Shown here one piece after another: positions 1-44,739 of a DNA stretch of 58,353 nt. The notes beneath the pieces are model-generated. The model worked only from the letters and a program-made list of their open reading frames with translations. It ran no database searches and was not told the DNA's origin. A program made the translations under genes and the position numbers. Every line of letters starts with the position of its first letter. The first letter of the stretch is position 1. The DNA is from an uncultured Desulfatibacillum sp. (GTDB taxonomy: Bacteria; Desulfobacterota; Desulfobacteria; Desulfobacterales; SpSt-501): assembly GCA_964562235.1 (NCBI GenBank), contig CAZLSV010000012.1:9263-67615 (forward strand). The letters run 5' to 3'.

Positions 1-534
1 GTATCTCGCCTATTAGCTCAGGCCTCCCATCCAGCACGGCGACGATATCCTCCATATCGTGCGACAGCAGGTAATCTCCTTTCCCGCGACTTTTGAAGGC
101 TTCGAGTTTGGTGGCTAAAAAATAGGGCCCTGTCACCAACCGGATAGGCCGTTTTGTATAGAGCTCAATCGGAATCGCCGCTTGCAAAGCCGGTCCGAAC
201 CAGCAGTTCCCAAAACCCAGGATCTTCGGGTTGGTGGGCATGACGTCCAAGACGTAACCCCCGCCTTCCACCGACAAACCGGGGCCTCGGGGCTAATATC
301 TTCCCGGAAGCCTCGCTTGCGTAGCTCCTTTGAAAGACGGTGGTATCCGCTCAGCGTCGCCACTTCGACAATCACATCGACATCTTCGGTAATTCTTATG
401 GGAGCCGAAGCCGGGTCGCTTACCAGCATACCCGTAGCACATCCGCCTAAGAAAACCATTTCGTCTGCAAGCGACCCGAGCAGATCCACGGTGCCGACGA
501 GGATATCAATATTTGGGTTTCTGACTGTTCCCAT
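1..534 (-). pseudogene. Nucleotidyltransferase-fold (AbiEii/MNT-like) putative toxin, frameshifted; the 3' end runs off the window
   Basis: Track ORF 133..534 starts with an NTase-like pattern (VFLGGCATGMLV ... RITEDVDVIVEV) but degrades after ...PVCRWKAG. From the C5 run at 258..262 the adjacent frame reads GGYVLDVMPTNPKILGFGNCWFGPALQAAIPIELYTKRPIRLVTGPYFLATKLEAFKSRGKGDYLLSHDMEDIVAVLDGRPELIGEI and stays open to nt 1. One extra base in the run would join the two parts. Confidence 0.6.
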
Positions 535-1054
535 ACGCTTTTAATTTGGCCTTTAGCTCGCAGGCAGCCTTTTCCCGTTCACGCGCTCGCCCACCTCGTA
601 TCGAATCTACCAAGGCCAGCAACTCGTAAAGCCCCGGGTCTTTCTGCGCGGCCTTGGGTGCTGACCTATACAACGGCGAAAATGCTATTCCGCGGACATT
701 CCCGGAAGGTTCCGGCCAGACCGGCACTGGTTCGGCACTATTGGCGAATCTCCCCTTCAGGGGAGCAACCGCGTGGCCGGTCGGAATCCCCCTGGTCGGT
801 TCTCCTCTTTCTGGGATAAAGATATACTTGAGGCCGTGGATGAGGAATTCTTCAAGATTGCTGATGTTGGGAATAATTCTACTCCCCAGATTCATAGCCA
901 GTGCCGAGACGAGACATCTCTTCAAAGCCGCATGGACCTCGGATGGGCTCATCCCTAATTCGACGGCCAGGCTATTGTAAGACCAACTACCGTTTCCGAC
1001 GACAACCAGCTTCAGCAGCACGAGAATATCCTGGGGTTTAATGCTCACGCCCAT
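506..1054 (-). CDS. Winged-helix/HTH protein, putative antitoxin or regulator partner of the downstream nucleotidyltransferase
   Basis: 182-aa ORF with an HTH-like N-terminus (SYNSLAVELGMSPSEVHAALKRC). Its 3' end overlaps the NTase start by 29 nt, a bicistronic toxin-antitoxin-like layout. Confidence 0.55.
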   Translation of the reverse strand: MGVSIKPQDILVLLKLVVVGNGSWSYNSLAVELGMSPSEVHAALKRCLVSALAMNLGSRIIPNISNLEEFLIHGLKYIFIPERGEPTRGIPTGHAVAPLKGRFANSAEPVPVWPEPSGNVRGIAFSPLYRSAPKAAQKDPGLYELLALVDSIRGGRAREREKAACELKAKLKAYGNSQKPKY

Positions 1055-1406: not shown

Positions 1407-4079
1407 TTACGTGGAAGAGCTGGGAAGCGGATATATTTCAAAACCCGCTGCTTTAAATTTCCCCGGCAATGTGCGGATGATCTTAAAATCATACTCTTTG
1501 ATATCCGGCGCCAGAGCGCTCCAGGGAATTAGATGTGGCGAGTGCTTTTTCGTTACATCTTTTGTATCTGCATAATGCCACCCGTGAAGCAGTCTCTCGA
1601 CATTCCATCGGCCGTGTTCCATTTCGGCCAGCTTCTCTATGCTATTTTCCTTTTCTCTAAGGTAGGCTTCAATGTCGAACAGCTCCCCGCTCGGATTTGT
1701 TGATTCACGTAGGCCCAAACCGACGGTCTTCAGAATGTTTTCGGCATAGGCAACCTGGTGGTAACATGAAACTTTAAATTCTGGCGGGTGCTTTTCGTGC
1801 TCCCACGGCAGCAACGCAGGCTCTTTCGGAGTCGCAAAGTTGACATAGTCAAGGTGGGCCTGTCGGGCGGCTTTCTCGAACTTCTTCCGCTCTCCGGGAA
1901 GTTCGTCAATTATCAAGAAAGCACGCAGGGTCATCGCATCCATAGGCAACCGAATCAGGCTTTTGTGGTCCTGCCAGCCCGGATCGCGGAACTGCCGGCC
2001 CTGGGGTATGGCTGGGTCTTCCACCACCCCCACTCGCGCGCCCAAAGCAAGCCCGACTGCGCATTCGGTTTGCGATATTTTCCCGCCGCAATAGCTGAGG
2101 CCCTTTACCCGGCAGGGATCGACGCCAGCAGCAACAATGTCGGTCCAGCCTTGCAGAGGTTCGAGGGGTGTAAAATCGCTTCCCGTGGAGGGAATAAGGA
2201 AAGCAAACCTGCCGGGATCTTCATCCCTCTTTACACCGTGGGGCAGTAAGTTGGGGTGATAACCAAAGCCTTTAATCTTACCACTTGAGCTTTGAGCGAT
2301 TTCGCCAGCCAGGCCGCTGATGCCCGATGTCGTCCCGCCGCAGATGAGCTTCAACGCCAATCCCTCAGAGGCGCGGAGCAGATGAGGCCTGAAGCGGTCA
2401 ATAGCGCTCTGCACCTCGGGAGCGCAGCCGCCAGAAAGAATGACAATGCTTCCACTTTGAGAAATGTCATTATTAGAAATAGGCTGCGGTTTCTTGTTCC
2501 AGGAAGCCCGCTCGGCCAGATCCTGGATGGCTCCCGGATCATGAACCCGCACCGCCAAACCCAGCAAAAGCGCCCTTTCACACCATTTAAAGCCATCGAG
2601 CTCTTTGCGAATGCACCGGATACGCCTGAACGTTTCTCTCATCCGGAGCAGTGCGCGATTGGCGGCGCATGGACGGTCGGCAATGCCGCAGGCATGCGCA
2701 CCAGCAGGCTCCTCTTGGGGAGGATCGCACAACCGTATGAGCTGCGCCATGGCCATCAGAGCCTCAAAGGGCTCTTTAGTGAAAAGGTGGAACACTGCGA
2801 GGCTGGCCCAGGCCAGAGGCAAGTTCACACCCGCCTCTATCTGCTTCCGGCAGCGCTCCACGGCATTTCGGATCATTGGGGAAGCCAGCCGAATGACGGT
2901 GTCGTTGGTGAGATGGGCGACCTCGAATTCCAGGTAGCGACAGAGCGTCACCGGCTCAGTCGGATCAAGGGTCACCGCCTGCTGAAAAATATTGCGTGCC
3001 TTGGTTTCGTCTTCGCGAGCCCAGCTCTCGGCCAATGCGCACAGCGTCTCTGCGTCGGGTTGGGGGTGGTTGCAGGCTGCTTGCAGCGCTTGGCGGCCTT
3101 CGATATACTCCTTGTTTTTGGGTGTATCCCAGTGAAGTTCGGTCAATGCTATCCCTCGCGCACGCTGGACTCCCTGATGAGGCTCTTTGGAATAATCGGC
3201 CAGTACTGCAAGGGCCGTCGAGTGTTCTCCGATCGAAAGAGCCAACTGGCCAATCTTGACAGCCATTTCAGTATTGCCAGGGTCCTGCTCAAGCACGATG
3301 CGCAACCGGGCGATCTCGGGCTCTACCATTTCGGGTTTGCGATAGGCCCCGCTATTCGACTTGAATGCATCCAGCGCCTGCACGATTCGTCCGAATTCAC
3401 GATCAGCCCCCTCGAGCACGGCTGCCAGCGCAGCGAATTGCCGGCGGATATTGGCCGGAACCTTGACCTCGGTTTTATAGGCCATGTCGTGGCCGATGTC
3501 GGCCCAGGCATGCTCCAACAGCGTGCGGACCTGGATCTCCGCCTTGAGGTTCTGAATCGTCGTGGGAAAATCGGTGCCTATCCCGGAGTCTCTGAGCTTC
3601 GTTGCATTGACCGACACGATGAAATGCACCGATCGGTAACCGAACTCCGTGGGCGTCAATCTCTGGCTGATGTCTCCGCTGTTGGCTCGGTCAATATCGA
3701 ATGCGTGTTCGATGAATCGGCAGACCGCAATGACCTGGGCAGACGTCTGGACGATCACTCGCCCTCCGCAAAGGTCGGTTACGCGCAGCAGCGGGTCGGG
3801 CGGAAGCGGGTCTTGCGGATCGGTGTAGAGCGCCTTTTTTCTGAGGATTTTTTCCGCAAAGCTGGCCACCGATTTTGCCCGCGCTTCCACGATGGCCAAT
3901 GGAGCCAATTTGCGACACGCTTCTTTGAGAACGACCCTTAAAAATTTTTCGTATTCAAGGTAGTTTTCCCTATCCTGTTTGAAACGCCCTACGTGCTCAG
4001 CCACCCATTGGTTGTCACTTAGTTTGGACCACTTCTGCACAGTGGTGGGGTCATTCTCGCTGATGGCCATGATTCCCAT
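1407..4079 (-). CDS. RelA/SpoT-family nucleotide pyrophosphokinase fused to a TPR-like helical region, a SLOG/LOG-like domain and a C-terminal RyR-type module
   Basis: 890 aa. RelA/SpoT motifs: DLCGGRVIV, GYRSVHFIV, EIQVRTLLEHAWADIGHD. SLOG/LOG-like Rossmann motifs: IVILSGGC, LICGGTTSGISGLAGE, YCGGKISQTECAVGLALGARVGVV. RyR-like C-terminus: LAEMEHGRWNVERLLHGWHYADTKDVTKKHSPHLIPWSALAPDIKEYDF. Confidence 0.85.
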   Translation of the reverse strand: MGIMAISENDPTTVQKWSKLSDNQWVAEHVGRFKQDRENYLEYEKFLRVVLKEACRKLAPLAIVEARAKSVASFAEKILRKKALYTDPQDPLPPDPLLRVTDLCGGRVIVQTSAQVIAVCRFIEHAFDIDRANSGDISQRLTPTEFGYRSVHFIVSVNATKLRDSGIGTDFPTTIQNLKAEIQVRTLLEHAWADIGHDMAYKTEVKVPANIRRQFAALAAVLEGADREFGRIVQALDAFKSNSGAYRKPEMVEPEIARLRIVLEQDPGNTEMAVKIGQLALSIGEHSTALAVLADYSKEPHQGVQRARGIALTELHWDTPKNKEYIEGRQALQAACNHPQPDAETLCALAESWAREDETKARNIFQQAVTLDPTEPVTLCRYLEFEVAHLTNDTVIRLASPMIRNAVERCRKQIEAGVNLPLAWASLAVFHLFTKEPFEALMAMAQLIRLCDPPQEEPAGAHACGIADRPCAANRALLRMRETFRRIRCIRKELDGFKWCERALLLGLAVRVHDPGAIQDLAERASWNKKPQPISNNDISQSGSIVILSGGCAPEVQSAIDRFRPHLLRASEGLALKLICGGTTSGISGLAGEIAQSSSGKIKGFGYHPNLLPHGVKRDEDPGRFAFLIPSTGSDFTPLEPLQGWTDIVAAGVDPCRVKGLSYCGGKISQTECAVGLALGARVGVVEDPAIPQGRQFRDPGWQDHKSLIRLPMDAMTLRAFLIIDELPGERKKFEKAARQAHLDYVNFATPKEPALLPWEHEKHPPEFKVSCYHQVAYAENILKTVGLGLRESTNPSGELFDIEAYLREKENSIEKLAEMEHGRWNVERLLHGWHYADTKDVTKKHSPHLIPWSALAPDIKEYDFKIIRTLPGKFKAAGFEIYPLPSSST

Positions 4080-4309
4080 CCTTTTTATGTAAGTTGAAAG
4101 GCGGATAAGAATTGCGCTTGGTTCCCTGGAATACTTTTATGTCGTGATGCATAAAGCGGTTAAGGCCTTTGTTTAAGACCTTAAAACAGGAGCGCATAGC
4201 CGAATGGAAAGTGGCAAAAGGAGTATCAGGAATTAAAATTTATGGCAAGCCTCGGCGAAGCCCATCCAATTCTTCCCAGTTGATAGAAGTCCTTCCTTTT
4301 GATAATTGA

Positions 4310-4768
4310 ATGGGGCTTCAAAATAACGAAGGAGACCTTTCGGTGAGCAACCAAGCTTCGCACCCCGTGCCGGTGATACGCCTTATAATCCCCAATGAAG
4401 CAGCCAAAGCACTCATCCTTTGCCGCCAGAACACCTCATACTCAGAGGGGCTATGGAACCTTCCGGGCGGCAAGGTGGACTACGGGCGGCTGGTGGAAGA
4501 TGAAGTGCGCAAGGAGCTGATGGAGGAGACCTCCCTCGCGTGCACCTCCATGCGTTTCCTTTTCTACCAGGACAGCCTGCCGCTGGAACCGGGCGGCATG
4601 CACTGCATCAATCTCTACTTTGAGTGCTCCGTGGAGGGCTCTTTTAATCTCAACGAAGAGTCCAGCCGATTCGCCTGGATCGGCCCGGAGGACTTGAGTC
4701 GCTTCCCCCTGACCTTCCGAAACGACGTGGGGCTTTTAAGGTACTGGGAAGAATTCCGGGACCGCTGA
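4310..4768 (+). CDS. Nudix hydrolase
   Basis: Nudix box GGKVDYGRLVEDEVRKELMEETSL (core KELMEE). An alternative GTG start at 4343 lies 8 nt after AAGGAG. The gene is divergent from the RelA/SpoT-SLOG gene. Confidence 0.8.
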   Translation: MGLQNNEGDLSVSNQASHPVPVIRLIIPNEAAKALILCRQNTSYSEGLWNLPGGKVDYGRLVEDEVRKELMEETSLACTSMRFLFYQDSLPLEPGGMHCINLYFECSVEGSFNLNEESSRFAWIGPEDLSRFPLTFRNDVGLLRYWEEFRDR

Positions 4769-4819: not shown

Positions 4820-6514
4820 TCAGATGGTCCGGATCAGCTTGTCCGCCGCCTTGGCGATGAGGGCCTCCATGCCTTTCAGTTCCCTCTCAAGGGAGCGCAT
4901 TCGCGATCTAGCGCCCTCGAGGTCTTTCTGAAGCATGATTCCCATGAATTTCATGGAGCCGGTCAACCCGGGCAGCACCGATTCCACGCTTTTAAGGGGG
5001 CTGGACCTGAATTTTTCTTGATTGTGGCTCAGCAAAGGCAGTTCGTCCAGGCGGTTCTGAATGGACATCCGCATGGCGGCTACCATTGAGTCTTCCGGCA
5101 GTCCTCTTCGGGCCAGAGGTAATAGATTTTCGCGGATGGTGTTGATGAGATCCTGAAGCTGTTTCAAGTGGTCGAGCTGATCCACCCAGAGGGGACCCGG
5201 GGGTGCCGGGGCGTGCGCCGCGACCTGCCGGGTCTGGCTCAAATCGCTTTCGGATAACCACAACACCCTTATGTGCTCGACCCGGAGCGCTTCCCCGAAC
5301 AGGGCGAAGGCCTGGGAGAGAACGGCCTTGAGTTGCCGCACGTTGCCTTGCCACGGGTAGTTCTTGAGCTCCCTCAAAACCTTTGCGGACAGCGGCTTGG
5401 CTTTTTTCCCCGCGATTTTATTGAACCACAGGTGGGTTGCAATCACCCGGATGTCCTCGGGGTGGCTGCGCAAGGCCGGAGTCCGGAGCACCAGGCCTCG
5501 CAAACGGTAATACAGGTCTTCGCGGAACTGGTTCGTGGCCACCAGGGAGAAAAGGTCACGATTGGTCGCCGCGACGACCCTTCCGGCGAAGCGGATTTCC
5601 GCCGAGCCGCCGACCCTGCAAAATGGCTTCCCGTCGATGGCCCGCAGGATCTTGGCCTGGTGGCTGAGCGGCATGTCGCCTATCTCGTCCAGAAAAAGGG
5701 TCCCTCCCCTCACCTGCTCGAGCGCGCCCTCCTTGTCGCTCAACGCCCCGGTGAAGGCACCTCTCACGTGGCCGAAGAGCTCAGACTCCAGAAGGTCCGT
5801 CGGGATCGCTGCGCAATTGACCACTTTAAATGGCCGGCCGGCTCTTGGACCGCAGAAGTGGATCTCCTGCGCGATGATCTCCTTACCGGTGCCGGTCTCG
5901 CCGAGAATGAGCACCGGGCCGCTCGAGCCGGCGGCGGCCATGGCCATCTGCAACGCCAGCTGGACGTCCCGCGCGCCGCCCGCATAGGCTTTGGACATGC
6001 GCGGCGGGATCCGGTAACGGCCCACGAGATGGAAAAGAGTCTCCTTGGCGAAGTCCTTTGTAAGCGAGATCCTGAAGGCCCGTGACGGCCGACGCACTTT
6101 GTCCCTGCCGGCCACCGGGGTCAGTACTTCAACGCAAAGCGTTTGAAAAACGTTGGCGTCAACACCGATCAGATAGATATTCCTCTCGCCTTTTCGGTCG
6201 GCGCTCTCCAGCAGGCTGCGGATACCGCTCTTGACTTTTTTGGCGGCGCTGTAGTTCCCGTCAATCAGCGGAATCTTGTCCTTGGAGAGAAGATACCCCG
6301 AGAGGCCTTTTCGCGAATCCTTTCGACCCCGGTCGGTTACGGCATCCTTGAACTCCCGAAGGGCCTTGAGCTGCTCCACCGGGAAAACCAGGGCCGCCTG
6401 CGGATGGCCCAATCTGAATTCGTTGAGGTCTTGACCCGAATCAAAGGAGACCTCTTGCGGGGTAGGTGGCTCGCCTCCCCCGCTGCCCGGAAACAGCAAA
6501 ACCGACGTTTGCAT
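4820..6514 (-). CDS. Sigma-54-dependent transcriptional activator (bEBP AAA+ core) with an unassigned N-terminal domain and no recognisable C-terminal Fis-type HTH
   Basis: Motifs: Walker A GETGTGKE, GAFTGA loop (HVRGAFTGA), Walker B LFLDEIGDM, RVVAATN, FREDLYYRL. ATG at 6514 is preceded by GAGG; the track ORF extends to a TTG at 6562. The C-terminal ~130 aa look coiled-coil-like rather than HTH. Confidence 0.85.
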   Translation of the reverse strand: MQTSVLLFPGSGGGEPPTPQEVSFDSGQDLNEFRLGHPQAALVFPVEQLKALREFKDAVTDRGRKDSRKGLSGYLLSKDKIPLIDGNYSAAKKVKSGIRSLLESADRKGERNIYLIGVDANVFQTLCVEVLTPVAGRDKVRRPSRAFRISLTKDFAKETLFHLVGRYRIPPRMSKAYAGGARDVQLALQMAMAAAGSSGPVLILGETGTGKEIIAQEIHFCGPRAGRPFKVVNCAAIPTDLLESELFGHVRGAFTGALSDKEGALEQVRGGTLFLDEIGDMPLSHQAKILRAIDGKPFCRVGGSAEIRFAGRVVAATNRDLFSLVATNQFREDLYYRLRGLVLRTPALRSHPEDIRVIATHLWFNKIAGKKAKPLSAKVLRELKNYPWQGNVRQLKAVLSQAFALFGEALRVEHIRVLWLSESDLSQTRQVAAHAPAPPGPLWVDQLDHLKQLQDLINTIRENLLPLARRGLPEDSMVAAMRMSIQNRLDELPLLSHNQEKFRSSPLKSVESVLPGLTGSMKFMGIMLQKDLEGARSRMRSLERELKGMEALIAKAADKLIRTI

Positions 6515-6728
6515 GGTATTCCTCGGAGAATGGTGTGACGAGCTGAAGAGAACCCCTTTCAAGTAAAAGCGAACTGCCGAAAGTATTGATCTCTCTTTAA
6601 CAAAAGCCGCAACTCAACACAATACCAACCCAACAGACCGCCAACTATACCGCCCAACTCAACCCGGTCTTCCCTTCAATTCAAACAACATATTGGAACC
6701 AATAGAAAATTAAGCGGCTTCGATCCCC

Positions 6729-6743
6729 TGGTACGGCATTTGC
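6729..6743 (+). promoter_or_regulatory. Sigma-54 (-24/-12) promoter for the 6805..14579 operon
   Basis: TGGTAC-GGCAT-TTGC matches TGGCAC-N5-TTGC with the exact GG/GC spacing. It lies about 60 nt upstream of ATG 6805 and next to the divergent bEBP gene. Confidence 0.7.
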
Positions 6744-6804
6744 CATGCTTTACTAAAAAGTACTGCAACCGGTGCTTGTCTTTAGAAAAGCCAGGGAGGA
6801 TCGC

Positions 6805-9054
6805 ATGGTGGAGGCGCAGCCGCACAAAGTCTGGGACGAGAATTCGGCGCAGCAGACGCTGCTTCAGGTGGCGGAGTTTTGCAAGAACGCGGTGCAGCTC
6901 GAGCTCAAGGTGGCATCCGACGGCTCATCGTTTCTGCTGAGCGCGCGCGGCGGGATTCCGCCCCCGCCGGGCATCTTCTCGGTCGCCGGCCGGCTCACCG
7001 ACGAGGGGCTCGTCGTCGTGAAGGTCGAGCTCTTCAGGAGCCTGGATGAGGTCCGGGTGTCGGCCCCCGCCTTCTGCGGGCTGCTCTCGCGCCTGGGAGA
7101 AAAGACGCGGCTTTGCCCCCCTCCGGACGGCCGGGCCGTGGAGGGCTCCCTGTGGGCGGAGCTCAGGGTCCGGGCCACGCCGCTTTCCGTGGAGCGCGCT
7201 TCGGCGCTGCTGGCCGAGTTCACCACTTTGTCCGAAATGGCCAGGCTCATGCAGGCCGGCCTGCCCGCGGCGCTGACCGACGGCGCGGTCACTCAGCTCT
7301 ACGCCGAGCTGGGGGGCGTCCTCTCCCCGATCCACCCCTGGGTGCTGCCGGATCCTGCATCCGCGGAACCGCTGCTCGCCTTCGGCCGCCGAGTCATGGA
7401 TTATCTGAATGCGGGCTTGAGCATCGCCATCGCTTCCCCGTTCAGCGTCCAGCAGGATGCAGCCCTGGCCCTCGTGGCCCGGGAGGCCCGTGAGAGCAAC
7501 CGCACCCTGGGTCGCCTGGTGCTTCCATCGGTCAATGCCCGCAGTCTGATGGAGGTGGTGCGCAAGGCGCCCGGCCTGATCGCGGCGCCCGTTGCCAACA
7601 TCAGCCTGGGGTCCAGCCCGTACGAACTCGGCAACGAAATGCCGGCGCTGCTTTTCGCACTGGCGGAGGCCAACGCCCCGATGGTTTTCTACGGTCGGTT
7701 CGAGGAGCATCAGACCCTCTTTCATGGCGGCCAGGGCGGCGCCAGCGACCCATTGCGCCCGGTGCTGGTCCGTGCGCCGGAGGTCCCTTTTGAGAGTCTG
7801 GTCCGGTTCGCCGTGATCTCGGCCGGCCGTCTCCACCCGGGCGGACTTCCTCAATCGGCGCTGGATGAACTGACGGTCGATGCGCTCGCCGCCCTGGGTG
7901 GTTTACCCCCGGCCGGTCGGGCCAGAATCCTGCCGGCGCTGGCCCGCCGGTCCGTGAACGCCCGGGCCGCCGGCCGCAAGTCGCATCCGGGCGCCGCCGC
8001 CGAATTTGCCGCCCGGGCCGCCGGTTTGTCCGAGACCCTGTCCGGCCTGAGTCCGCAGCCCAGAGCCGTGCGCACTCCGCAGGTCCAGCAGCGCATCACC
8101 GAGGTCCTGACCGACCCTTCGTTGCTGGCGTATTTCCAGGAGCATCTGCTGGCCCAGGACCCGGCGCTGCTCGCTTTGGTTGATCGTTTGGGGGGCGAGG
8201 CCCTGACGCGGCCCCCGCACCAGCCGATCCGCTACTGCGCTCTGGGGACGCCCGGGACGGGCAAATCCGAGAGCGCCGCCCTGCTGGCCCGCCGCCTCGG
8301 CGTCCCCTTCATCAACATCGACGCCGCCAGCATGTCGGACTACCACACCGCCGCCGCCCAGCTTCTGGGCTCGGGCCGCGGCATCGTGGGTTCGCACCAG
8401 AGCGGGCGCCTGGAACAGGCCGCCAAGCACCACACGGGCGTGGTGGTCGAGGTGAGCGACATCGACCACGCCGTGCCTTCGGTGCAGTCCTACATGGCGG
8501 ATCTTTTTCTGCAGGTGCTGGACATGGGCGAAGCCCAGAGCTCGATCGGCCCGAAGTTCTCCTGCGCCAACCTGATCTTCGCCTTCACCATGAACCTGCC
8601 GGGCGGCATGGACGAGCGCATCCGCCAGAGCATGGGCTTCAGCCCCACCCCCAGCCGACAGGAGGTGACGCGCGGGGTGGCGGCGGAGGTGAAGTCGATG
8701 TTGTCGGGCGCGTTTCTCAGCCGCATCGGAACCCCGGTGGTTTTCGACCCGCTGGAGGGCGCGGCCCTGGTGAAGATCGTCGTCCGTGCCGTTCAAAACG
8801 CCGTGCGCTCGGCGGCCGAACGGTTGGGTTTCACCGTTCTGGAAGTCGCCGTGTCGCCCGCCACGGGCGAAGCGGCGCTGAACCTTCTGCGCTCGAAGCT
8901 GGTCTCTTTCGGTGCCCGGGCGCTCCTTGAGCACGCCCGGGATCTGTCCGCGAAAGCCGTCCTTGAATGGATGCGTTCGGCTCCGGCCGTACGCTCCGTA
9001 AAACTAAGTGTCGCCGTCGATGCCGGCGGTGATCTCATCGTCACGTCCACCTGA
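6805..9054 (+). CDS. ClpA/ClpB-like AAA+ protein (D2-type module with small C-terminal domain) carrying a large unassigned N-terminal half
   Basis: Walker A GTPGTGKS (8245..8268); Clp-D2-like context LLGSGRGIVGSHQSGRLEQAAKHH; the Walker B position reads VVVEVSDIDHA; D2-small-like tail FLSRIGTPVVFDPLEGAALVKIV. ATG 6805 follows GGGAGG; the track ORF begins at 6772. Confidence 0.75.
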   Translation: MVEAQPHKVWDENSAQQTLLQVAEFCKNAVQLELKVASDGSSFLLSARGGIPPPPGIFSVAGRLTDEGLVVVKVELFRSLDEVRVSAPAFCGLLSRLGEKTRLCPPPDGRAVEGSLWAELRVRATPLSVERASALLAEFTTLSEMARLMQAGLPAALTDGAVTQLYAELGGVLSPIHPWVLPDPASAEPLLAFGRRVMDYLNAGLSIAIASPFSVQQDAALALVAREARESNRTLGRLVLPSVNARSLMEVVRKAPGLIAAPVANISLGSSPYELGNEMPALLFALAEANAPMVFYGRFEEHQTLFHGGQGGASDPLRPVLVRAPEVPFESLVRFAVISAGRLHPGGLPQSALDELTVDALAALGGLPPAGRARILPALARRSVNARAAGRKSHPGAAAEFAARAAGLSETLSGLSPQPRAVRTPQVQQRITEVLTDPSLLAYFQEHLLAQDPALLALVDRLGGEALTRPPHQPIRYCALGTPGTGKSESAALLARRLGVPFINIDAASMSDYHTAAAQLLGSGRGIVGSHQSGRLEQAAKHHTGVVVEVSDIDHAVPSVQSYMADLFLQVLDMGEAQSSIGPKFSCANLIFAFTMNLPGGMDERIRQSMGFSPTPSRQEVTRGVAAEVKSMLSGAFLSRIGTPVVFDPLEGAALVKIVVRAVQNAVRSAAERLGFTVLEVAVSPATGEAALNLLRSKLVSFGARALLEHARDLSAKAVLEWMRSAPAVRSVKLSVAVDAGGDLIVTST

Positions 9055-9067
9055 AAAGGAGGGTCTC

Positions 9068-10090
9068 ATGAGCAAACAGATCTACCGTGTCTGGAATCCA
9101 GATGAATTCCGCAAGGCCGGTCCCAGCGACCTGATCGAGCTGCGGCCGGTGCCGGGGTTCCATGCCCTGTTTTTTAAAAAGGCGGACCTCGAGCTGATCG
9201 TCTACGCCATCGCCTCGAACGAGTACTGCCACATATCCGGGCCGACCGGCACGGCCAAGACCTCGCTGATAGAGGCCCTCTACCGGGTGCCGGAGAATTT
9301 CTTTGCGCTCTGCCAGGCGTTGGATTTTCCGAAAAAGCCGCTCCGGCTCTACCCCATCCAGGTTCTCGTCTTCGAGACCCCGGGCGAGCTCTACGTGCGC
9401 CGCGCCCTCAAGGACGGCGCGACCTTCGACGAGAAAAGCATGGTGGTGCTCTCCCTGGAGGACGCCTACCGCCACCGCAAGACCTGCTACGCCCTCCTCT
9501 GGCTGCGGGAGCTGGGCCGCGTGCACTCCTCCAGCGTCCAAGGCGGGCTGCTCGACATGATGTACCCGGGCGATATCACGCTGCCCGACGGCTCGCGTAT
9601 CGACGGCAGCGAGATCTCCTGGATCGCCGACAGCAACTACCAGGCGGAGAGCGACGCCACCCACACCCTGGTCGTCTTCGACGCCGCCCTCAAGCGCCGA
9701 TTCTGCATCAACGCCACGCTGGATTACCTGCCGCCCCAGCAGGAAAGCCTGGTGGTGCGGGAGATCCTCAAAAAGGAAAAACCGCGCGGTTTCCAGAAGG
9801 GGGACGAGGAACTGATCGACAAAGTTGTCCAGCTGGGCGACGCCATCCGGCGCCAGCGGGCCGAGGGCAACCTGCACTCCGCCCCGCCGCCCACGATCAG
9901 CGGTTATCTGGCGTTCATGCGCATGGCCATCCGGCTGCGGCACCTCAGCCTGCAGCACCTGGCCATGGCGACCCTGCTCGGCCACTGCAGCCAGGAGGAC
10001 TCCAAGCAGGCCGCGGCCGTTTTGAACGAGGTTTTCGGGCTGCAGGCGGTCGAAGCGGACGACACGGCCATGGGAGTGAATCTCTTTTAA
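9068..10090 (+). CDS. AAA_5 / MoxR-CbbQ-NorQ-like AAA+ ATPase
   Basis: Walker A GPTGTAKT (9239..9262). ATG 9068 follows AAAGGAGGG; the track ORF begins at 9008. It sits directly upstream of a VWA protein, the classic MoxR-VWA pairing. Confidence 0.75.
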   Translation: MSKQIYRVWNPDEFRKAGPSDLIELRPVPGFHALFFKKADLELIVYAIASNEYCHISGPTGTAKTSLIEALYRVPENFFALCQALDFPKKPLRLYPIQVLVFETPGELYVRRALKDGATFDEKSMVVLSLEDAYRHRKTCYALLWLRELGRVHSSSVQGGLLDMMYPGDITLPDGSRIDGSEISWIADSNYQAESDATHTLVVFDAALKRRFCINATLDYLPPQQESLVVREILKKEKPRGFQKGDEELIDKVVQLGDAIRRQRAEGNLHSAPPPTISGYLAFMRMAIRLRHLSLQHLAMATLLGHCSQEDSKQAAAVLNEVFGLQAVEADDTAMGVNLF

Positions 10091-10105
10091 TCAAGGAAGG
10101 GCCCC

Positions 10106-12232
10106 ATGCAATACAGAGGACATTATTCGCCCGGTTACGCTTATGGCGTCTGCCGGCGCCGGTCGAAGACCGATTGGGCCGGCATCAGCCGCAACGACGC
10201 CTACAAGCTCAACATCGAATGGGATTATCGACTCCAGGCGCAGCGCCTGTTCTATATCGCGTGCAAGCAGGCGCAGCTGGCCGTGGCGCGCCAGGTAAAC
10301 CCGGCGCTCGATTCGAGCTTCACCCCCAAGGTAAAACCGCAGATCAGCGCCGCCTACACGAGCTATCCGGCGAGCCTGGCAGTGCCGGCGTGCATCGGCC
10401 AAACGGCGTTCCTAGAGTATCAGCAGTGGATGAAGGAAAAAATTCTCATCACCTATCTGGCCGATTATCTGAAAAACCCGGCCGAATTCGACGAGGTGCG
10501 CACCAACCCCGAGGCCTATCGGCATCTGGCTCAAACGGTGGCCGAAACCGTTCAGACGCGGCTGCTGCTCGAGTCGCTCAGCCGCCTGCGGCCGGCGGCC
10601 ACGGTCGAAACCGCCCGTCTCTTTTTGGCGAGCCAGCAGACCCTGCGATTCGATTCTCTGCCCGAAATCCTGCGGGCGGTCATTCTTTTTGGAGATGTCT
10701 TGCCCGGCTGGCGAAATCGTCTGTTGCATCCGTTGACTGCATCCATCCTGAATGATGCCACCGAGGTCAGCACCCCGTATCTGGCGCGCCTGCACCACAC
10801 CAAGTCTCATTTGCTGGTCGACGAGGGGGTCAGCTGGGTCAAAACGCTCAGCCGCCGCTTGGCCGTTTATCTGCCGGAGCCGCCCCCCCAGCCGGCACCG
10901 CCTCAGCCGGATCAGGGCGGCGCTTCCGGCAGCGGCAAGGCGGGGACGCCGGAGAATCAACCGCCGCATCGAGCAAGGAGTTTTAACCCGTATTCGCCCC
11001 TCGCCCCGCCGCTCAATTCCAGCCGGGCGCCGACCCTCTTCGAAGAGCCCAATCCCATGCGGCAGTTCGCCCAAGGGCTTTCGTCCGCGCAAAACCGCGA
11101 TGGCGGCGGCTCGTTTGAAGGAATCCCAGCGCCGGCCGCCAAAGGGTCCGTCGACCCGTTGTCGCAGCTGGTCAACGATTTTTTCCAGACCCTCCAGCAA
11201 GCGGGTGGACAGACGCAGCAGTACCAGGACATGCGCTCGGATCTGGTCGAGCAGGCGGCCCGCAGCGCCGGGTTCAAGGAGGGCCCGCTGCAGGGCAACC
11301 CCGCCGACGGCCACAACGTAAAGGTTTCGCTCGGAGACGGTCGAGAGGCCGGGGGGGAGATCTTCGACCGGCCGGTGGAGCTTGCCGACGATTTTTCGGG
11401 CTACGAACTCCTCAAGCGCGAGGCCCAGTCGGTAACCGAGGATCTGCGCCGCACGCTCTATCCCAATTTCACCCAGGTGCCTGAAACCGAGCGATTGCGC
11501 ACCACCGGCACGCTCGACCCGGCGCGCCTTCCACTGGCCGACCTGGTCTCCGCCGTTTTCAGGCGCTACAAGGTCTGCGAACAGGCCGACAAGCGCGGCC
11601 GGCCGGTGCTGCTGGTGGCCTGCGACGGCTCCGGGTCGCTCAACAGCTCCCAGATCCGCATGCTGAAGATCCTCTGCTGCGCCTGGCTTCTCGCGACGGT
11701 CGGCAAGGCGATTCAGGTATTGGCTGGGCTTTACCACAGCGGCATCATCCGGCAGGGGCTCAGCGGGCCGCTCGTGCAGTGGATATTCCACCCTCGCAAA
11801 ACACCGGCCACCGGACGCAAGGACGCCGCACGGGCACTGCTGTCGCTGCCCAACTCCGGCACGGGGGCCCAGTCCGATGCCTTGTCGCTGGCCTTCATGC
11901 TCGATGAGGCAGCGGCGCTGGCCGCCGGGCGCCGGATCTATCTGATTCTTTTAACGGATTGTGCCTGGAACACCAGCTTCTCCATCGGAAAGTCCGGCAA
12001 GGAGGAGGTTTTATCCTTCTTCCAGGGAGCCTACGAGCGGTTCGGCGACAAGCTCCACACCACCCTGGTGGCCCTGGGCGTGACCGGGGAGACCGGGTTC
12101 GAGAGCCTGCTCGACAAGGTGATCACGGTCAGCAACGACGAGTTGAAGGACCCGTCGACGGTTGCCGCTAAAATCGGGCTCTACGTGGCCGCCTGCATGA
12201 AGGAGCGCCGCCGGATGGTGGCCCGCAAATAA
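10106..12232 (+). CDS. von Willebrand factor A (VWA) domain protein (CbbO/NorD-like partner)
   Basis: 708 aa. The C-terminal VWA has a MIDAS DxSxS motif (VLLVACDGSGSLNSS). A Pro/Gly-rich linker (EPPPQPAPPQPDQGGASGSGKAGTPENQPP) sits mid-protein. The gap to the upstream AAA+ gene is 15 nt. Confidence 0.75.
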   Translation: MQYRGHYSPGYAYGVCRRRSKTDWAGISRNDAYKLNIEWDYRLQAQRLFYIACKQAQLAVARQVNPALDSSFTPKVKPQISAAYTSYPASLAVPACIGQTAFLEYQQWMKEKILITYLADYLKNPAEFDEVRTNPEAYRHLAQTVAETVQTRLLLESLSRLRPAATVETARLFLASQQTLRFDSLPEILRAVILFGDVLPGWRNRLLHPLTASILNDATEVSTPYLARLHHTKSHLLVDEGVSWVKTLSRRLAVYLPEPPPQPAPPQPDQGGASGSGKAGTPENQPPHRARSFNPYSPLAPPLNSSRAPTLFEEPNPMRQFAQGLSSAQNRDGGGSFEGIPAPAAKGSVDPLSQLVNDFFQTLQQAGGQTQQYQDMRSDLVEQAARSAGFKEGPLQGNPADGHNVKVSLGDGREAGGEIFDRPVELADDFSGYELLKREAQSVTEDLRRTLYPNFTQVPETERLRTTGTLDPARLPLADLVSAVFRRYKVCEQADKRGRPVLLVACDGSGSLNSSQIRMLKILCCAWLLATVGKAIQVLAGLYHSGIIRQGLSGPLVQWIFHPRKTPATGRKDAARALLSLPNSGTGAQSDALSLAFMLDEAAALAAGRRIYLILLTDCAWNTSFSIGKSGKEEVLSFFQGAYERFGDKLHTTLVALGVTGETGFESLLDKVITVSNDELKDPSTVAAKIGLYVAACMKERRRMVARK

Positions 12233-12245
12233 GAGGAGGCATACG

Positions 12246-13400
12246 ATGATCATAGGACCTTTAGGCAATCCAACAGGGGGAGGGAATCGCGGCGGTGGAT
12301 TCGACGATGATTGGAACTGGTCCTCGCGCCGCATGGACCGCCGGAAGCTCGAAGCGGCCCTTTCAACGCTGGTCCAGCAGCTCGGAGCGTACGATGAAAA
12401 GCGCTCCGAGATGGAAAAGCGTGCCGTCACACCGGCCATGCTTCTGTCTACCATGGAGCTCCTCAAGCTTACGTTCGAAGTGGAGGTCCTCGGCCGCACC
12501 CACAAGGTAGCCCTCGTAAACCAAGCCTCGGTCCGGGAGCTCCTGCGGGATCTGTGGCACTATGAATGCCGCTTTGAGATCCGCACCTCCGCCGCGGGCA
12601 TGCCGCTTTATTACCTGCCCCGCGTCTGGCACGACTACGACGCTGTTTACAGCCTGGTGCTCGAGGACTTGTACCAGAGCCCCGGGTACCCCATGGGAGA
12701 GGAGCGTTTCGTCAAGATCATGTGGGGCGGCCACGAGGTTTACTTCATCCGCCTGTCGCCGTTTCGCAAGTCCCTCCTCGAGGCCCGCTCCCCGTTGAGA
12801 GATCCGGACGCGGAAGACGAAATCGATGCGCTTCTCAAAAAGATCGGCCGCCTGGTCTTCCAGGCCTGCTGGCACGAGGACCAGTACGTGGGAATGGTGG
12901 CGGCCGATCAGTTCGAGCTCGTCCATTTTCGCCGGGCTGTCGAACTGCTCTACCTCTGCCTGACCGCCGAGCTTTGTGAGCTTCGCGGCGCCGTTGATGA
13001 GACCATGATAGCGTTCTTCAGAAACGTCTATGCCCAGCCCGCCATCGTCTCTTTTCTGAACCGCCTCGTACGGCTGGACGGCAAGGCCCTGGCCGAGGTG
13101 CCGCAGGCGGCGCTCAAACACTTCCCGGCCCTGTCCCGGACCTTCAGCCGGTTTCTGGCGGTGGAGCTCCCCTGGGGCCGCAGCAAGGCGCTGGTGCCGC
13201 TTTACAAGCTTCTCTTCGCCAACTTCTCGCGCCTGGACAGTGTGCGAGGCGCGATCGCCGCCACCGAGGAGCTCCGCAAGGCGGCTGAGCGGCTCGAGAA
13301 GCAGTCTCTGGCCGTCATCGAGGCACTTCTGGATGGAGCTGGAGATGTGGGGCTGGAGCCCGGCCCGGACCGGGCTGAAAAAATGGCGGTTGCCGTTTAA
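12246..13400 (+). CDS. Hypothetical protein (helical, no family recognised), fourth gene of the sigma-54 operon
   Basis: 384-aa ORF with coding-like composition. It lies 13 nt after the VWA gene and is preceded by AGGAGG. Confidence 0.6.
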   Translation: MIIGPLGNPTGGGNRGGGFDDDWNWSSRRMDRRKLEAALSTLVQQLGAYDEKRSEMEKRAVTPAMLLSTMELLKLTFEVEVLGRTHKVALVNQASVRELLRDLWHYECRFEIRTSAAGMPLYYLPRVWHDYDAVYSLVLEDLYQSPGYPMGEERFVKIMWGGHEVYFIRLSPFRKSLLEARSPLRDPDAEDEIDALLKKIGRLVFQACWHEDQYVGMVAADQFELVHFRRAVELLYLCLTAELCELRGAVDETMIAFFRNVYAQPAIVSFLNRLVRLDGKALAEVPQAALKHFPALSRTFSRFLAVELPWGRSKALVPLYKLLFANFSRLDSVRGAIAATEELRKAAERLEKQSLAVIEALLDGAGDVGLEPGPDRAEKMAVAV

Positions 13401-13412
13401 TCGGAGGGGACC

Positions 13413-14579
13413 GTGCGAATTCGAATCCAAGCGATTCCGTTGACGTCGGTGTTCGAGGGCTTCCACCCGCGGCTGTGGGTGCTGGCGTTCATTGCCCTGG
13501 TGTTTATCAGCATCGCCTGGCTGGATATTACCCGCCCACCGCCCATCCGGCCCTCGTTCCATTCCATATTTTCATCGCACGAGGAGATGGGACAGGATTC
13601 CGAAACGCCCGAGCAGGAGCGCACTCCGTTGTTCACCGCCGGCATCCGCTCCGCCCCGCCGGAGGGGATCACCAAAGAGATCGGCGACTGCGAGCACAGC
13701 TTGACCGTCGATGTGGACGGCATCGGCCGACGCGAACGCGTTTGCGTGCGCACCGCCGTTTACAGAAATCGGGATGGACAGGCCCTCTACGATTCGCTGA
13801 TCGTGGACATCTATAAAAACGGGGACTGGCTTCTGCGCCAGGAACTCGATCGCGGCCTCTTTGGGGCGGAACGCTTTCACCTGCTGCGCGATCTCGACAT
13901 GGACGGCCGGGCGGAGCTCATCACGGTCCTTTCGGCCCGCCCGGAGGGCTCCGGCGAGGACGCCTGCCGGATCTACAAGTTCGACGGCTACGCCTTCGTT
14001 GAGGCTCTCCACGTTTTCGGCCTGCCCCCGCAGGATGCGTCGGTGGCCTTCTTCCTGCGCCACCTCCCCGAGATCCAGGCGGACATCAGCGCGCGCTATG
14101 CCGATGCCATCGCCAGCCCGGATCTGTGCGCGGACGCCGGCGATGAGGGCGACTGTTTCGCGGGCTCGCCCTGGCTGCTCGACTCCAACGGCGACGGACG
14201 CCTGGAGCTGGTCCAGCTGCTGGAGCCGCCCGACAGCCTCGAGAGTTCCAAAACCGGCCCGTTCCAGCTCTTCGTTAAGGAATTTAGGCGCCGCGGGATG
14301 GAGGGCCGAAGCCGCTTCCACGCGATGGGGCCGGGGCCCGCCGGCTCCAAAACTGGATCGATCCTCTTTCACCGATCAGACGACGGTCCGGTGATCCTGC
14401 TGGTCTCCTTTACCGATCCCGGCGCCCGGGCCGCCCGCGCCTCCTTGGTCGCTTTCGAAATCGCCGGAATCCGCGTGAAGAAAGCTCCCAGGCTCAGCGG
14501 CTTCGCGCTGCCCGGGCTCAACGAGCGGCTGCACTTCGCCAACAAAGAGGAGCCCCTGGAAACCCGGTATTTGAAGTGA
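13413..14579 (+). CDS. Membrane-anchored protein with FG-GAP/VCBS-like repeats
   Basis: GTG start after GGAGGGGA. N-terminal TM segment HPRLWVLAFIALVFISIAWL. Calcium-loop-like repeats LRDLDMDGRAELI and LLDSNGDGRLELV. Confidence 0.6.
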   Translation: MRIRIQAIPLTSVFEGFHPRLWVLAFIALVFISIAWLDITRPPPIRPSFHSIFSSHEEMGQDSETPEQERTPLFTAGIRSAPPEGITKEIGDCEHSLTVDVDGIGRRERVCVRTAVYRNRDGQALYDSLIVDIYKNGDWLLRQELDRGLFGAERFHLLRDLDMDGRAELITVLSARPEGSGEDACRIYKFDGYAFVEALHVFGLPPQDASVAFFLRHLPEIQADISARYADAIASPDLCADAGDEGDCFAGSPWLLDSNGDGRLELVQLLEPPDSLESSKTGPFQLFVKEFRRRGMEGRSRFHAMGPGPAGSKTGSILFHRSDDGPVILLVSFTDPGARAARASLVAFEIAGIRVKKAPRLSGFALPGLNERLHFANKEEPLETRYLK

Positions 14580-24267: not shown

Positions 24268-25347
24268 CTACGAAAAGTCTAACTCGGATGCCAGGGCGTT
24301 TATCTTGCTGTAATTTCGATTTTCATAAGGTTTGGAGTATTCTTCAAGGATCTGCAGCATTCGGGGGTGCATAAGGCACTGTCGAGCGACATTGCAGTCC
24401 TTGCAGGTGGTCTTCCCGGCAACGCCGATTTTCCCGACCCCCGCGAGCTCCCCCGAGCCGGCGGCTTTGATCACGGTTCCCAAACCTTGGGGCTCGACCC
24501 AGAATGCCAAGTGACAGTGCAGCGCCTCCACTTCAAGCCAGTCGCCTGCTTCCAAGGTCACGCAGCGCCACGTCCGCACCCCCCGCTCGGTCATGGGCTT
24601 GTGCCATACCTGCAAGCGGCCCTCGATGACACCGTAGATCTCGACCGCGGGTAGCCCGTGGACATGGACGTCCTGCTTGTCCCTCGGGGTGAAGAAGCTC
24701 CAGGTAAAGCCAAGGCCCTGCTTCTGGTAGGGAAGATAGGGGTCGGCCACGCGCAGGTTGAAAGCACGGTCGCCGGCCTCCAGAATGCCGCGGATGTCAG
24801 CCCCTTTCACATGCCGAACCCCGCCCTTGTTCCGGCCGGCCCAGTGAGAGGCCAGGGCGTCCATGCTGGGCTGCGAATAGGCGGAGTTTAGCAATTCCGG
24901 GTGCCGTTGTAGAATGAATCGGGCGATGGCGCGAACGTTCGGTTCTTTGGCGTTCTGCAGGATCTCATCCAGAGTCCACCAGACCGATTCACTCCCGTCA
25001 ACCTTCACAGAAGCAGCCGCCTCAGGGGTCAGCGAAACATCGACCGGGTAGAGAAACCACTGCTTGGTGAGCCCCGGATACCGCGGGCTCTCCCCCTCGT
25101 TCGGAATCATCCCAAGCTCGTTCTCAGGATAGTAGCTCAGCGGTGGAAGTCCAAGATCCTCCTCCATGGGACGGGCGAGCGCCGAGTATAGCCCCTCTCC
25201 CTGCCTGAACCTGGTCGGCGGAAAAGTCAGGTGCCCCTGCTTGCGAAGCATTAGAAATCGAACCGACCCTTTCTCATGGGCTCTCGTTCTAATGAGGCAA
25301 TAGAGCACAAGAGAGGCTCTATGATTTTCCAGTACGCCAGTCTCCAC
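24268..25347 (-). CDS. Nudix-like domain fused to a cupin domain, third gene of the TIR operon
   Basis: GTG start after AGGGGGA. Partly degenerate Nudix box GEGLYSALARPMEEDLGL. Cupin motifs DVHVHGLPAVEIYGVIEG and GDWLEVEALHCHLAF. Cys-rich tail CKDCNVARQC. Confidence 0.7.
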   Translation of the reverse strand: METGVLENHRASLVLYCLIRTRAHEKGSVRFLMLRKQGHLTFPPTRFRQGEGLYSALARPMEEDLGLPPLSYYPENELGMIPNEGESPRYPGLTKQWFLYPVDVSLTPEAAASVKVDGSESVWWTLDEILQNAKEPNVRAIARFILQRHPELLNSAYSQPSMDALASHWAGRNKGGVRHVKGADIRGILEAGDRAFNLRVADPYLPYQKQGLGFTWSFFTPRDKQDVHVHGLPAVEIYGVIEGRLQVWHKPMTERGVRTWRCVTLEAGDWLEVEALHCHLAFWVEPQGLGTVIKAAGSGELAGVGKIGVAGKTTCKDCNVARQCLMHPRMLQILEEYSKPYENRNYSKINALASELDFS

Positions 25348-25398
25348 CCCTATCCCCCTGAATTCGCCTAATTTGTAAATGCGGTAAATTTCCGAGAA

Positions 25399-27543: not shown

Positions 27544-27555
27544 AATTTTTCCCCT

Positions 27556-44728: not shown

Positions 44729-44739
44729 GATCTGTGTCC

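Follow-up and report, generated by a model that had tools for sequence, protein, structure and literature searches.

Here, we describe a family of RelA/SpoT homologues (RSH) in which a pyrophosphokinase domain is joined, through a linker resembling tetratricopeptide repeats (TPR), to a SLOG domain and a tandem RyR module. We tentatively propose that these proteins are ligand-gated alarmone synthetases that act as effectors of a Thoeris-like nucleotide-signalling conflict (defence) module, with a small Nudix hydrolase as the off-switch. The member analysed here is encoded on a 58,353-nucleotide stretch of DNA from an uncultured Desulfatibacillum sp. (assembly GCA_964562235.1, contig CAZLSV010000012.1, positions 9,263 to 67,615 of the forward strand), referred to below as the window. 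Its gene is an uninterrupted 890-codon open reading frame (ORF) that occupies exactly positions 1407..4079 on the minus strand, with the stop codon at 1407-1409 (ORF list). A preliminary description of this DNA had read the gene as a fusion of four parts, and that architecture holds: Pfam, scans of homologues (PF18171), and AlphaFold2 (AF2) models compared by Foldseek agree on it. The motifs quoted in that description are all present in the protein at the expected positions, namely, DLCGGRV (residues 102-108), YRSVHF (148-153), EIQVRT (181-186), EHAWA (189-193), GGTTSGISG (581-589), CGGKISQTE (664-672), EMEHGRWNVERLLHGWHYA (819-837), and KKHSPHLIPW (844-853). The full-length AF2 model has a predicted local distance difference test score (pLDDT) of 84.8 and a predicted template modelling score (pTM) of 0.80, with low confidence at residues 140-147 and 191-220 of the synthetase G-loop.

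Domain architecture of the protein

The N-terminal domain (residues ~22-240; 3360..4016, minus strand) resembles small alarmone synthetases (SAS). Pfam PF04607 (RelA_SpoT) matches residues 67-204, corresponding to nucleotides 3468-3881, with an E value of 1.7e-16 and 60.9 bits against a cut-off of 27. As had been claimed, the synthetase core is intact, with catalytic motifs that are complete and conserved across the family alignment: R67, K69, D102, G105, R107, Y148, R149, E181, Q183, R185, and T186 are invariant in the 37 closest relatives and 85-91% conserved over 74 family sequences. The basic R67/K69 pair, DxxGxR, GYRSxH, EIQxRT, and the H..YK helix align residue by residue to the motifs of RelQ/RelP. 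When a profile of 64 family N-terminal domains was run against PDB sequences, RelQ/RelP structures were recovered at E values of 4e-20 to 3e-14, compared with 5e-4 for CapRel, 6e-3 to 0.15 for long Rel/RelA structures, and about 0.09 for FaRel2. Fold comparison of the full-length model by Foldseek also places the synthetase nearest RelQ/RelP, with CapRel (9erv) among the fold matches. Judged from sequence, the N-terminal domain is a predicted intact pyrophosphokinase, most like nucleotide-producing SAS and remote from the tRNA-modifying toxic SAS (toxSAS).

The protein fits poorly into existing RSH classes. Neither HD nor TGS nor ACT/RRM domains, which would mark a long RSH, were matched in Pfam or NCBIfam scans of the 890-aa protein, confirming the absence of HD, TGS, and ACT reported in the preliminary description. 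At 890 aa and with three further domains, the protein lies outside the strict SAS class (~200-300 aa, one domain), and the family profile scores do not place it in the toxic subfamilies FaRel, FaRel2, PhRel, PhRel2, and CapRel. The earlier comparison to toxSAS and CapRel therefore stands insofar as all are RSH proteins without a hydrolase domain, and fails as a statement of kinship, given that the family profile is nearest RelQ/RelP.

The linker (residues ~249-525; 2505..3335, minus strand) had been described as a TPR-like helical spacer, which agrees with the models. In the full-length AF2 model it is an all-helical solenoid for which Foldseek returns the TPR arrays of SPY/OGT and designed consensus TPR proteins. 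Pfam matches to TPR_14/TPR_19 between residues 250 and 385 are sub-threshold in the window copy and exceed the threshold in homologues, where TPR-S “sensor” repeats are also detected.

The SLOG domain (residues ~540-725; 1905..2462, minus strand) carries the loops GGTxxGxSG and GGxISxxE. The SLOG segment of the window copy alone has no Pfam match (E≤10) and no phmmer match in PDB, and the family SLOG profile run against PDB sequences gave only spurious designed-repeat matches and a weak match to LOG (E 0.11). Assignment of the window copy to PF18171 (LSDAT_prok, “SLOG in TRPM, prokaryote”) consequently rests on the family: among SLOG segments cut from 71 members and scanned against Pfam, 49 matched PF18171 (lowest E value 3e-10), and its gathering score of 25.4 bits is surpassed by several relatives of full length. 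Furthermore, an AF2 model of residues 510-890, made from an alignment of the C-terminal 381 residues with 36 homologues (pLDDT 91, pTM 0.91), comprises a Rossmann-like beta-alpha-beta domain and, C-terminal to it, a helical module, and its top Foldseek matches in PDB include the MHR1/2 regions of TRPM2/3/4/5/8, the best being the ADP-ribose-bound TRPM2 chanzyme (E 1e-6). Over the 74 sequences, G550 is conserved at 100%, G581/G582/G586 at 83-86%, G666 at 95%, and E672 at 85%. Of the “SLOG/LOG-type” domain described earlier, SLOG is thus upheld, and LOG gives way to the TRPM-type LSDAT_prok family. Within the SLOG superfamily, TRPM MHR1/2 constitutes the LSDAT branch of eukaryotes, and in TRPM2 it binds ADP-ribose (ADPR) (PMC13143021); in type I Thoeris, the SLOG domain of ThsA binds 3'cADPR, a cyclic ADP-ribose (cADPR) made by the TIR protein (10.64898/2025.12.03.692087).

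The C terminus (residues ~730-886; 1422..1892, minus strand) is a tandem RyR, Repeat12-like module. Its second repeat, residues 809-882, matches Pfam PF02026 (RyR) with an E value of 2e-10 and 41.1 bits (45 for the isolated segment) against a cut-off of 27.4. By Foldseek, the module covers 186-205 alignment columns of the 205-aa human RyR3 Repeat12 (R12) domain (6uhb, 9l9b, 6uhh), so that the C-terminal ~160 residues represent the full two-repeat module, in keeping with the tandem RyR originally recognised. Repeat 1 is degenerate (H742, Y745, W759); repeat 2 has H822-x-x-W825, W853, and D864. H822, W825, and D864 are among the most conserved positions of the protein (97%, 93%, and 97% of the 74 sequences), H742 is conserved at 97%, and an aromatic residue is kept at 745.

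These positions recall phage proteins built on the same fold. In phage RyDEP the residues of note are H75, W78, H100, and D117, that is, His-x-x-Trp, a second His, and Asp (PMC13232231), and in RyR Tad they are H129, W132, and D171 (10.64898/2026.06.04.730250). The spacing of H822/W825/D864 (+3, +42) equals that of RyDEP H75/W78/D117 (PMC13232231). The equivalent of RyDEP H100 is unconserved, being H846 or H849 in the window copy and L or Y in the consensus. A Foldseek comparison of the C-terminal module with BFVD likewise turns up phage RyR-domain proteins. Phage RyR/R12 proteins are either nanomolar binders of 2'/3'cADPR or enzymes that cleave it (PMC13232231; 10.64898/2026.06.04.730250); since the H/D pair is common to sponges and glycosidase, the conserved residues do not tell ligand binding from cleavage.

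Distribution, partner genes, and window surroundings

A word-indexed search returned 694 homologues at E≤1e-5, many of them full length (~870-900 aa), with a top E value of 0 and 47-74% identity; the gene is thus no chance feature. Named sources of homologues were Verrucomicrobiota, Planctomycetota, and Phycisphaerae metagenome-assembled genomes (MAGs). In a pattern scan of GTDB (one genome per species, 185,579 species representatives; counts are lower bounds), at least 239 species carry a family member. The closest relatives (47-70% identity) come mostly from MAGs of the Planctomycetes-Verrucomicrobia-Chlamydiae (PVC) group, namely, Verrucomicrobiota, Planctomycetota, and Lentisphaerae, and the single nearest (L001, 70% identity) is labelled Desulfobacterales. 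Full-length relatives at ~35% identity are found in MAGs labelled Chloroflexota, Gemmatimonadota, Actinomycetes, Gammaproteobacteria, Nitrospiraceae, Bathyarchaeia, Halobacteriota, and methanogens. An earlier survey found no RSH in the PVC genomes sampled and reported Rel from many of the phyla in which the family occurs (Atkinson 2011; PMC3153485). This sporadic spread, which includes Rel-carrying phyla, argues for an accessory, laterally moving gene and not a housekeeping stringent factor. Database labels are generic (“RyR domain-containing protein,” “ppGpp synthetase/RelA/SpoT-type nucleotidyltransferase”). The search for this architecture across genomes, with scoring of neighbourhoods, that the preliminary description had called for has thus yielded a wide and patchy family with Nudix and TIR neighbours.

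Neighbourhoods were analysed in 80 loci retrieved from the 239 species, in which ORFs were called and clustered; partner counts are over 77 loci. The neighbour that recurs most consistently is a Nudix protein of ~140 aa, which falls in the same cluster as the product of window gene 4310..4768 (plus strand; 152 aa; Pfam NUDIX, E 4e-13, 49.8 bits). The Nudix gene first noticed beside the window synthetase is therefore the family's most conserved partner: one is present in 35 of the 77 loci, within 300 bp in 33, and directly upstream on the same strand in 30, leaving more than half of the loci without one. In two proteins (P0130 and P0160) NUDIX is fused N-terminally to give NUDIX-RelA_SpoT-TPR-LSDAT-RyR, and by the Rosetta-stone argument such fusions indicate a direct functional link. 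The Nudix box Gx5Ex7REUxEExGU is near-invariant across the 35 partners. In PDB and NCBIfam the partner is closest to NudI, MutT/MTH1, and NudG, not to ADPR pyrophosphatases; this NTP type leans weakly toward hydrolysis of the predicted synthetase product.

In the window, the Nudix gene is divergent from the synthetase gene, and the box reads GGKVDYGRLVEDEVRKELMEETSL: R60 replaces the first Glu, which 97% of the other copies have, K68 replaces Arg, and E69, E72, and E73 are unchanged. The FLFYQDSLP-type insertion of the window Nudix occurs in only five other loci (L043, L045, L056, L075, and L076); because these come from distant phyla, the window Nudix may not be orthologous to that of the closest relatives. 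The 230-bp intergenic region (4080..4309, no strand assigned), read from its sequence, presumably holds the promoters of both genes. It contains one weak sigma-70-like match, at 4211-4239 (plus strand), and no sigma-54-like site.

TIR-domain proteins, mostly TIR-WD40, TIR-TPR, and DUF4062-NACHT-TPR, form the second recurrent class of neighbours. They were detected with a profile grown iteratively from one Pfam-verified seed, and ten hits were then checked against Pfam: nine of them (eight of nine locus ORFs and the window ORF at 27556-28623) passed as TIR_2, the exceptions being one locus ORF that is sub-threshold (L023) and window ORF 25399-27543, for which Pfam shows only PFK. TIR genes lie in the flanks of 32 of the 77 loci and within 1 kb in 19; in 12 the arrangement is operon-like, the TIR gene sharing the strand of the family gene at a distance of at most 150 bp. 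As an internal control, TIR density per 10 kb is 1.02 at 0-1 kb from the family gene, 0.41 at 1-3 kb, and 0.17-0.24 at 3-10 kb, an enrichment of 4-6-fold near versus far. The association is genuine but partial. NACHT and WD40 conflict genes also occur beside family genes.

The C-terminal half of the protein behaves as a modular unit. When the SLOG-RyR half was the query of an exhaustive HMMER search, 389 clusters (50% identity) were recovered at E<1e-30, and in nearly all of them the module lies at the C terminus of 820-1020-aa proteins. In P0231 the unit is joined to a Ser/Thr protein kinase, and in a Bathyarchaeia MAG (L032:1466-4648) the RSH-TPR-LSDAT-RyR protein gains a C-terminal KaiC-like ATPase. 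Moreover, a ~580-610-aa TrkA_N-...-RyR paralogue adjoins the synthetase gene in at least 11 loci, with TrkA_N confirmed by Pfam in five. Such loci include L025, L026, L029, L034, L043, L047, L048, and L056, TrkA_N being an NAD-binding domain, and a trio of RSH, Nudix, and TrkA_N/RyR genes is frequent in Gemmatimonadota MAGs.

At several loci the family gene occurs two or three times, and in one MAG separate contigs (L018 and L022) carry copies; in L024 the tandem second copy is an AAA-ATPase-RyR protein (L024:15279-18353). Divergent second copies that lack the catalytic residues make up about 10% of the alignment, and such tandem copies may, from their sequences, be inactive regulatory paralogues. 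The tandem second copies (L007, L023, L024, L036, L048, L064, L071, L073, and L080) show 13-17% identity in the SLOG segment.

Between the window start and the synthetase gene lies the pair that had been described as AbiE-like. The gene pair is there; the AbiE label is not sustained, as neither gene has a Pfam AbiE match and PADLOC assigns them to PDC-M21A (506-1054, minus strand; E 7e-43), a candidate defence gene, and to PDC-M21B (133-534, minus strand; E 1e-17 over only the first 93 of 234 profile positions), a nucleotidyltransferase-like candidate. The PDC-M21B gene is frameshifted near residue 92, runs on in another frame to the window start, and may be a pseudogene or reflect a sequencing error. 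We ruled out this pair as part of the system, given the frameshift and its lack of conservation beside the family; it adds nothing beyond island context.

On the other side of the Nudix gene, a sigma-54 enhancer-binding protein with a 195-aa N-terminal domain of no assigned family (4820-6562, minus strand) is represented by homologues next to RSH family members in L001, L034, and L004. It faces a sigma-54-type -24/-12 element, TGGTACGGCATTTGCC (6729-6744), which in turn faces an operon extending to 14579 that comprises a Clp-like AAA protein (6772-9054) and four ORFs (360, 708, 384, and 388 aa) without a Pfam match. Sigma-54 control of the synthetase gene was considered and rejected: this sole well-placed site faces the Clp-like operon (6772-14579), and the window-wide count of sites equals chance.

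A patch of conflict genes ~16-24 kb from the synthetase gene contains relatives of genes that flank the family elsewhere. A 1218-aa DUF4062 (TIR-like)-NACHT/nSTAND1-TPR protein (20524-24180, plus strand) is 54% identical to the product of the gene directly upstream of the L078 homologue and 34-36% identical to neighbours in L002 and L020. It is followed on the minus strand by a trio comprising a 359-aa weakly Nudix-like protein (24268-25347; sub-threshold NUDIX match), a 714-aa PFK-domain protein whose TIR-like N terminus is seen only by the purpose-built profile (25399-27543), and the TIR_2 protein (27556-28623; Pfam TIR_2). The last two have homologues beside RSH family genes in L015 and L023. 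The trio (24268-28623) sits in a low-GC stretch (0.47-0.54 versus ~0.63) and is possibly a separate TIR system.

Farther away are ordinary metabolic genes, encoding a LarAH10-family 2-hydroxyacid racemase dependent on nickel-pincer nucleotide (NPN) (40215-41519), a pyridoxal phosphate (PLP)-dependent decarboxylase (42047-43543), and tartrate dehydrogenase (44670-45893), from which we take the window to be chromosomal and not a mobile element. A cobalamin riboswitch (Rfam RF00174, 109 bits) at 52955-53160 (plus strand) precedes ORF 53252-54574 on the same strand, so the overlapping minus-strand ORF 52373-54742 is probably spurious.

Proposed function and alternatives

A role in conflict or signalling rather than housekeeping, as first suggested, is favoured by the patchy spread, by duplications within loci and genomes, and by neighbourhoods rich in TIR and STAND genes. 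In the mechanism that we propose, the synthetase would be kept inactive at rest. A nearby TIR protein, having sensed an invader, would be the source of a NAD-derived nucleotide, with ADPR or a 2'/3'cADPR-type signal as candidates, that would occupy the SLOG and/or RyR pocket. Ligand binding, possibly with oligomerisation mediated by the TPR linker, would then license pyrophosphate transfer from ATP to a purine nucleotide. Growth would be arrested by the surge of (p)ppGpp and/or (p)ppApp that follows, along with the drain on ATP and GTP. Hydrolysis of the product, or else of the ADPR-type signal, would let the Nudix enzyme fix the threshold and return the switch to rest, a role akin to that of the HD domain in long Rel or of the small alarmone hydrolase (SAH) antitoxin for toxSAS. 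We judge this account of the family, as a gated synthetase with a Nudix off-switch in a defence module, to fall a little short of an even chance. Doubtful, in our estimate, is the stronger claim that these proteins are TIR/NAD-signal-activated effectors of a new class, which would turn an ADPR-type immune signal into alarmone synthesis and would join Thoeris-like cADPR signalling to (p)ppGpp/(p)ppApp signalling, with Nudix as a “timer” comparable to the Rel hydrolase. On that reading, the coupling in one prokaryotic system of parts known from two animal Ca2+ channels, the SLOG plus Nudix pair of TRPM2 and the R12 module of ryanodine receptors, would point to a common origin of both in conflict systems and would favour R12 as a putative cADPR/ADPR receptor.

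A number of observations weigh against the proposal of a signal-gated defence effector. Product, ligand, and toxicity are all predicted, from genes and models. Of the 46 loci flanked by 3 kb or more in each direction, 17 have neither TIR nor Nudix nearby, and the closeness of TIR genes could stem from clustering in defence islands and not from coupling; in the window none is adjacent, the nearest (27556-28623) being ~21 kb off. The window Nudix is divergently oriented and of a minority subtype, with R60 at the first Glu of its box, and as regards the choice of substrate, the Nudix partners are kin to NTP-type enzymes and not to ADPR pyrophosphatases. RyR3 R12 structures with ATP and ADP are among the Foldseek matches, and ordinary adenine nucleotides are ligands of SLOG and RyR domains as well, so something other than an immune signal may be bound here. 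PpnN, of the LOG family, is a (p)ppGpp-binding protein. The sole PADLOC match of the protein is that of the synthetase domain to PDC-S33, itself an unproven candidate. All of the family-carrying genomes in the GTDB scan are MAGs, with no cultured isolate among them. Lastly, searches of 50,697 phage records, 72,556 plasmids, and 2.9 M viral contigs yielded SAS-domain matches only and no full-length copy, so there is no direct link to mobile elements or phage.

One alternative is a physiological alarmone circuit, in which SLOG-RyR would read the cell's own nucleotide pool (ATP/ADP, NAD metabolites, or product feedback) and Nudix would be the dedicated hydrolase, the whole being independent of Rel in lineages without long RSH, such as PVC bacteria. 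The absence of RSH from sampled PVC genomes (PMC3153485) makes such a circuit attractive, as the closest relatives come from Verrucomicrobiota, Planctomycetota, and Lentisphaerae MAGs and full-length identity within PVC is high (47-74%). The synthetase is nearest the non-toxic RelQ/RelP, the Nudix-synthetase fusion mirrors the hydrolase-synthetase layout of Rel, and RyR3 R12 has been crystallised with ATP and ADP. However, the ~239 carriers among 185,579 species representatives, even as a lower bound, are far from lineage-wide, and the family also occurs in archaea and in Rel-bearing Actinomycetes, Chloroflexota, and Gammaproteobacteria. Tandem and multiple copies, some with degenerate catalytic residues, the enrichment of TIR, NACHT, and WD40 conflict genes beside the family, and the swapping of the sensor unit onto other output domains, typical of conflict systems, likewise tell against it, and we regard a physiological circuit as unlikely.

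The conserved two-gene layout with a small hydrolase resembles toxSAS-SAH pairs (PMC7229694) and would accommodate a toxin-antitoxin or direct-sensing arrangement, in which a toxin restrained by its C-terminal half and/or by a Nudix antitoxin is triggered by a phage protein bound to the TPR, with no diffusible signal. CapRel, a fused and autoinhibited RSH that senses a capsid protein (PMC9712102), is among the fold matches (9erv), TPR-S “sensor” repeats are found in homologues, and the RyR module might in a variant of this arrangement destroy or sponge cADPR-type molecules, as the R12 domain of RyDEP is a cADPR glycosidase by virtue of an H/D dyad (PMC13232231) that the family conserves. We nevertheless consider a toxin of this kind quite improbable: the profile is far nearer RelQ/RelP than CapRel or FaRel2, the C-terminal half consists of two nucleotide-binding folds unlike the CapRel antitoxin domain, Nudix is missing from more than half of the loci, and the highly conserved SLOG and RyR pockets would be left without a role. 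Most improbable of the alternatives is a gated effector with a macromolecular output, for which tRNA would be the synthetase substrate. The characterised defence-associated RSH enzymes do modify tRNA (10.1101/2021.04.30.441581; PMC9712102), and a universal target would be favoured by a family that spans bacteria and archaea and would explain function in archaea and in PVC bacteria without a classical (p)ppGpp regulon. Depletion of ATP/GTP or synthesis of (p)ppApp would be equally universal, though, sequence and fold group the domain with nucleotide-producing RelQ/RelP, and a MutT/NudI/NudG-like Nudix partner better suits a small-nucleotide product.

Relation to known systems

The view that no characterised protein has this four-part architecture agrees with our literature search, which found no description of it. 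Neither RSH-TPR-SLOG-RyR nor a pairing of RSH with Nudix was described in the publications searched, the founding SLOG paper (Burroughs et al. 2015) lying outside that search; the architecture is not mentioned by Atkinson 2011, Jimmy 2020, Kaur 2020, the 2025 survey of TIR systems, or the RyR-domain preprints. The 2025 survey does not list an RSH effector (10.64898/2025.12.03.692087).

If the proposed mechanism is correct, an alarmone synthetase would join the known outputs of signal-based prokaryotic immunity, and a Nudix enzyme would become a dedicated partner of an RSH synthetase. RyR/R12, so far represented in prokaryote biology only by phage anti-Thoeris proteins (2026 preprints), would gain a cellular receptor role. 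It would also explain the presence of an RSH homologue in PVC bacteria and archaea, which were reported to be RSH-free by Atkinson 2011 (PMC3153485). As a two-gene or even single-polypeptide (Nudix-RSH fusion) system, the family would be tractable for learning how SLOG and R12 pockets read ADPR-type ligands, a matter that bears on the pharmacology of TRPM2 and ryanodine receptors.

Among known RSH proteins, RelQ/RelP of Bacillota (5DED, 6EWZ, 6FGK, 2BE3) have the same catalytic domain and likewise lack HD, TGS, and ACT, but each consists of one domain of ~210 aa and is under the control of tetramerisation and pppGpp, in contrast to the 890-aa window protein with its TPR, SLOG, and RyR parts and its Nudix partner. 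With toxSAS and CapRel the family shares an RSH synthetase without a hydrolase domain and with a role, here predicted, outside the stringent response; the conserved small neighbour gene could neutralise the synthetase enzymatically, as does the SAH antitoxin ATfaRel, and CapRel similarly combines enzyme and regulatory C-terminal part in one polypeptide. The partners differ, however, being an HD-type SAH or a protein antitoxin in toxSAS and a pseudo-zinc-finger in CapRel, whereas the family has Nudix and nucleotide-binding domains.

The resemblance to Thoeris (TIR protein ThsB plus the SIR2-SLOG protein ThsA) lies in the fusion of a SLOG sensor to an enzyme, here only predicted to arrest growth, and in the frequent TIR neighbours. 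From sequence, SLOG plus RyR on an RSH synthetase would fit the description of a Thoeris effector as a signal-binding SLOG or Macro domain fused to a toxic domain. Thoeris effectors are, however, SIR2, Macro-TM, or similar, whereas the family has a RelA/SpoT synthetase, an LSDAT-type SLOG, an extra RyR module, and a Nudix gene; its TIR neighbours are mostly large TIR-WD40, TIR-TPR, or NACHT proteins, and the window lacks an adjacent one. RyDEP and RyR Tad share with the family the R12 fold and the H-x-x-W ... D residues at identical spacing, yet they are small dimeric phage anti-defence proteins, whereas the family has both repeats in one chain as the presumed receptor of a cellular enzyme. 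Among eukaryotic proteins, RyR3 Repeat12 of the ryanodine receptor is the best structural match of the C-terminal module, and TRPM2 (SLOG/MHR1-2 plus NUDT9-H) is the best match of the SLOG domain and similarly pairs a SLOG sensor with Nudix; TRPM2 is, in contrast, an ion channel with a NUDT9-like Nudix, whereas the Nudix of the family is MutT/NudI-like and its predicted output is a nucleotide pyrophosphokinase. The components and the general logic of sensor, toxic enzyme, and hydrolase are thus known; what appears new is their combination and the predicted coupling of signal to alarmone.

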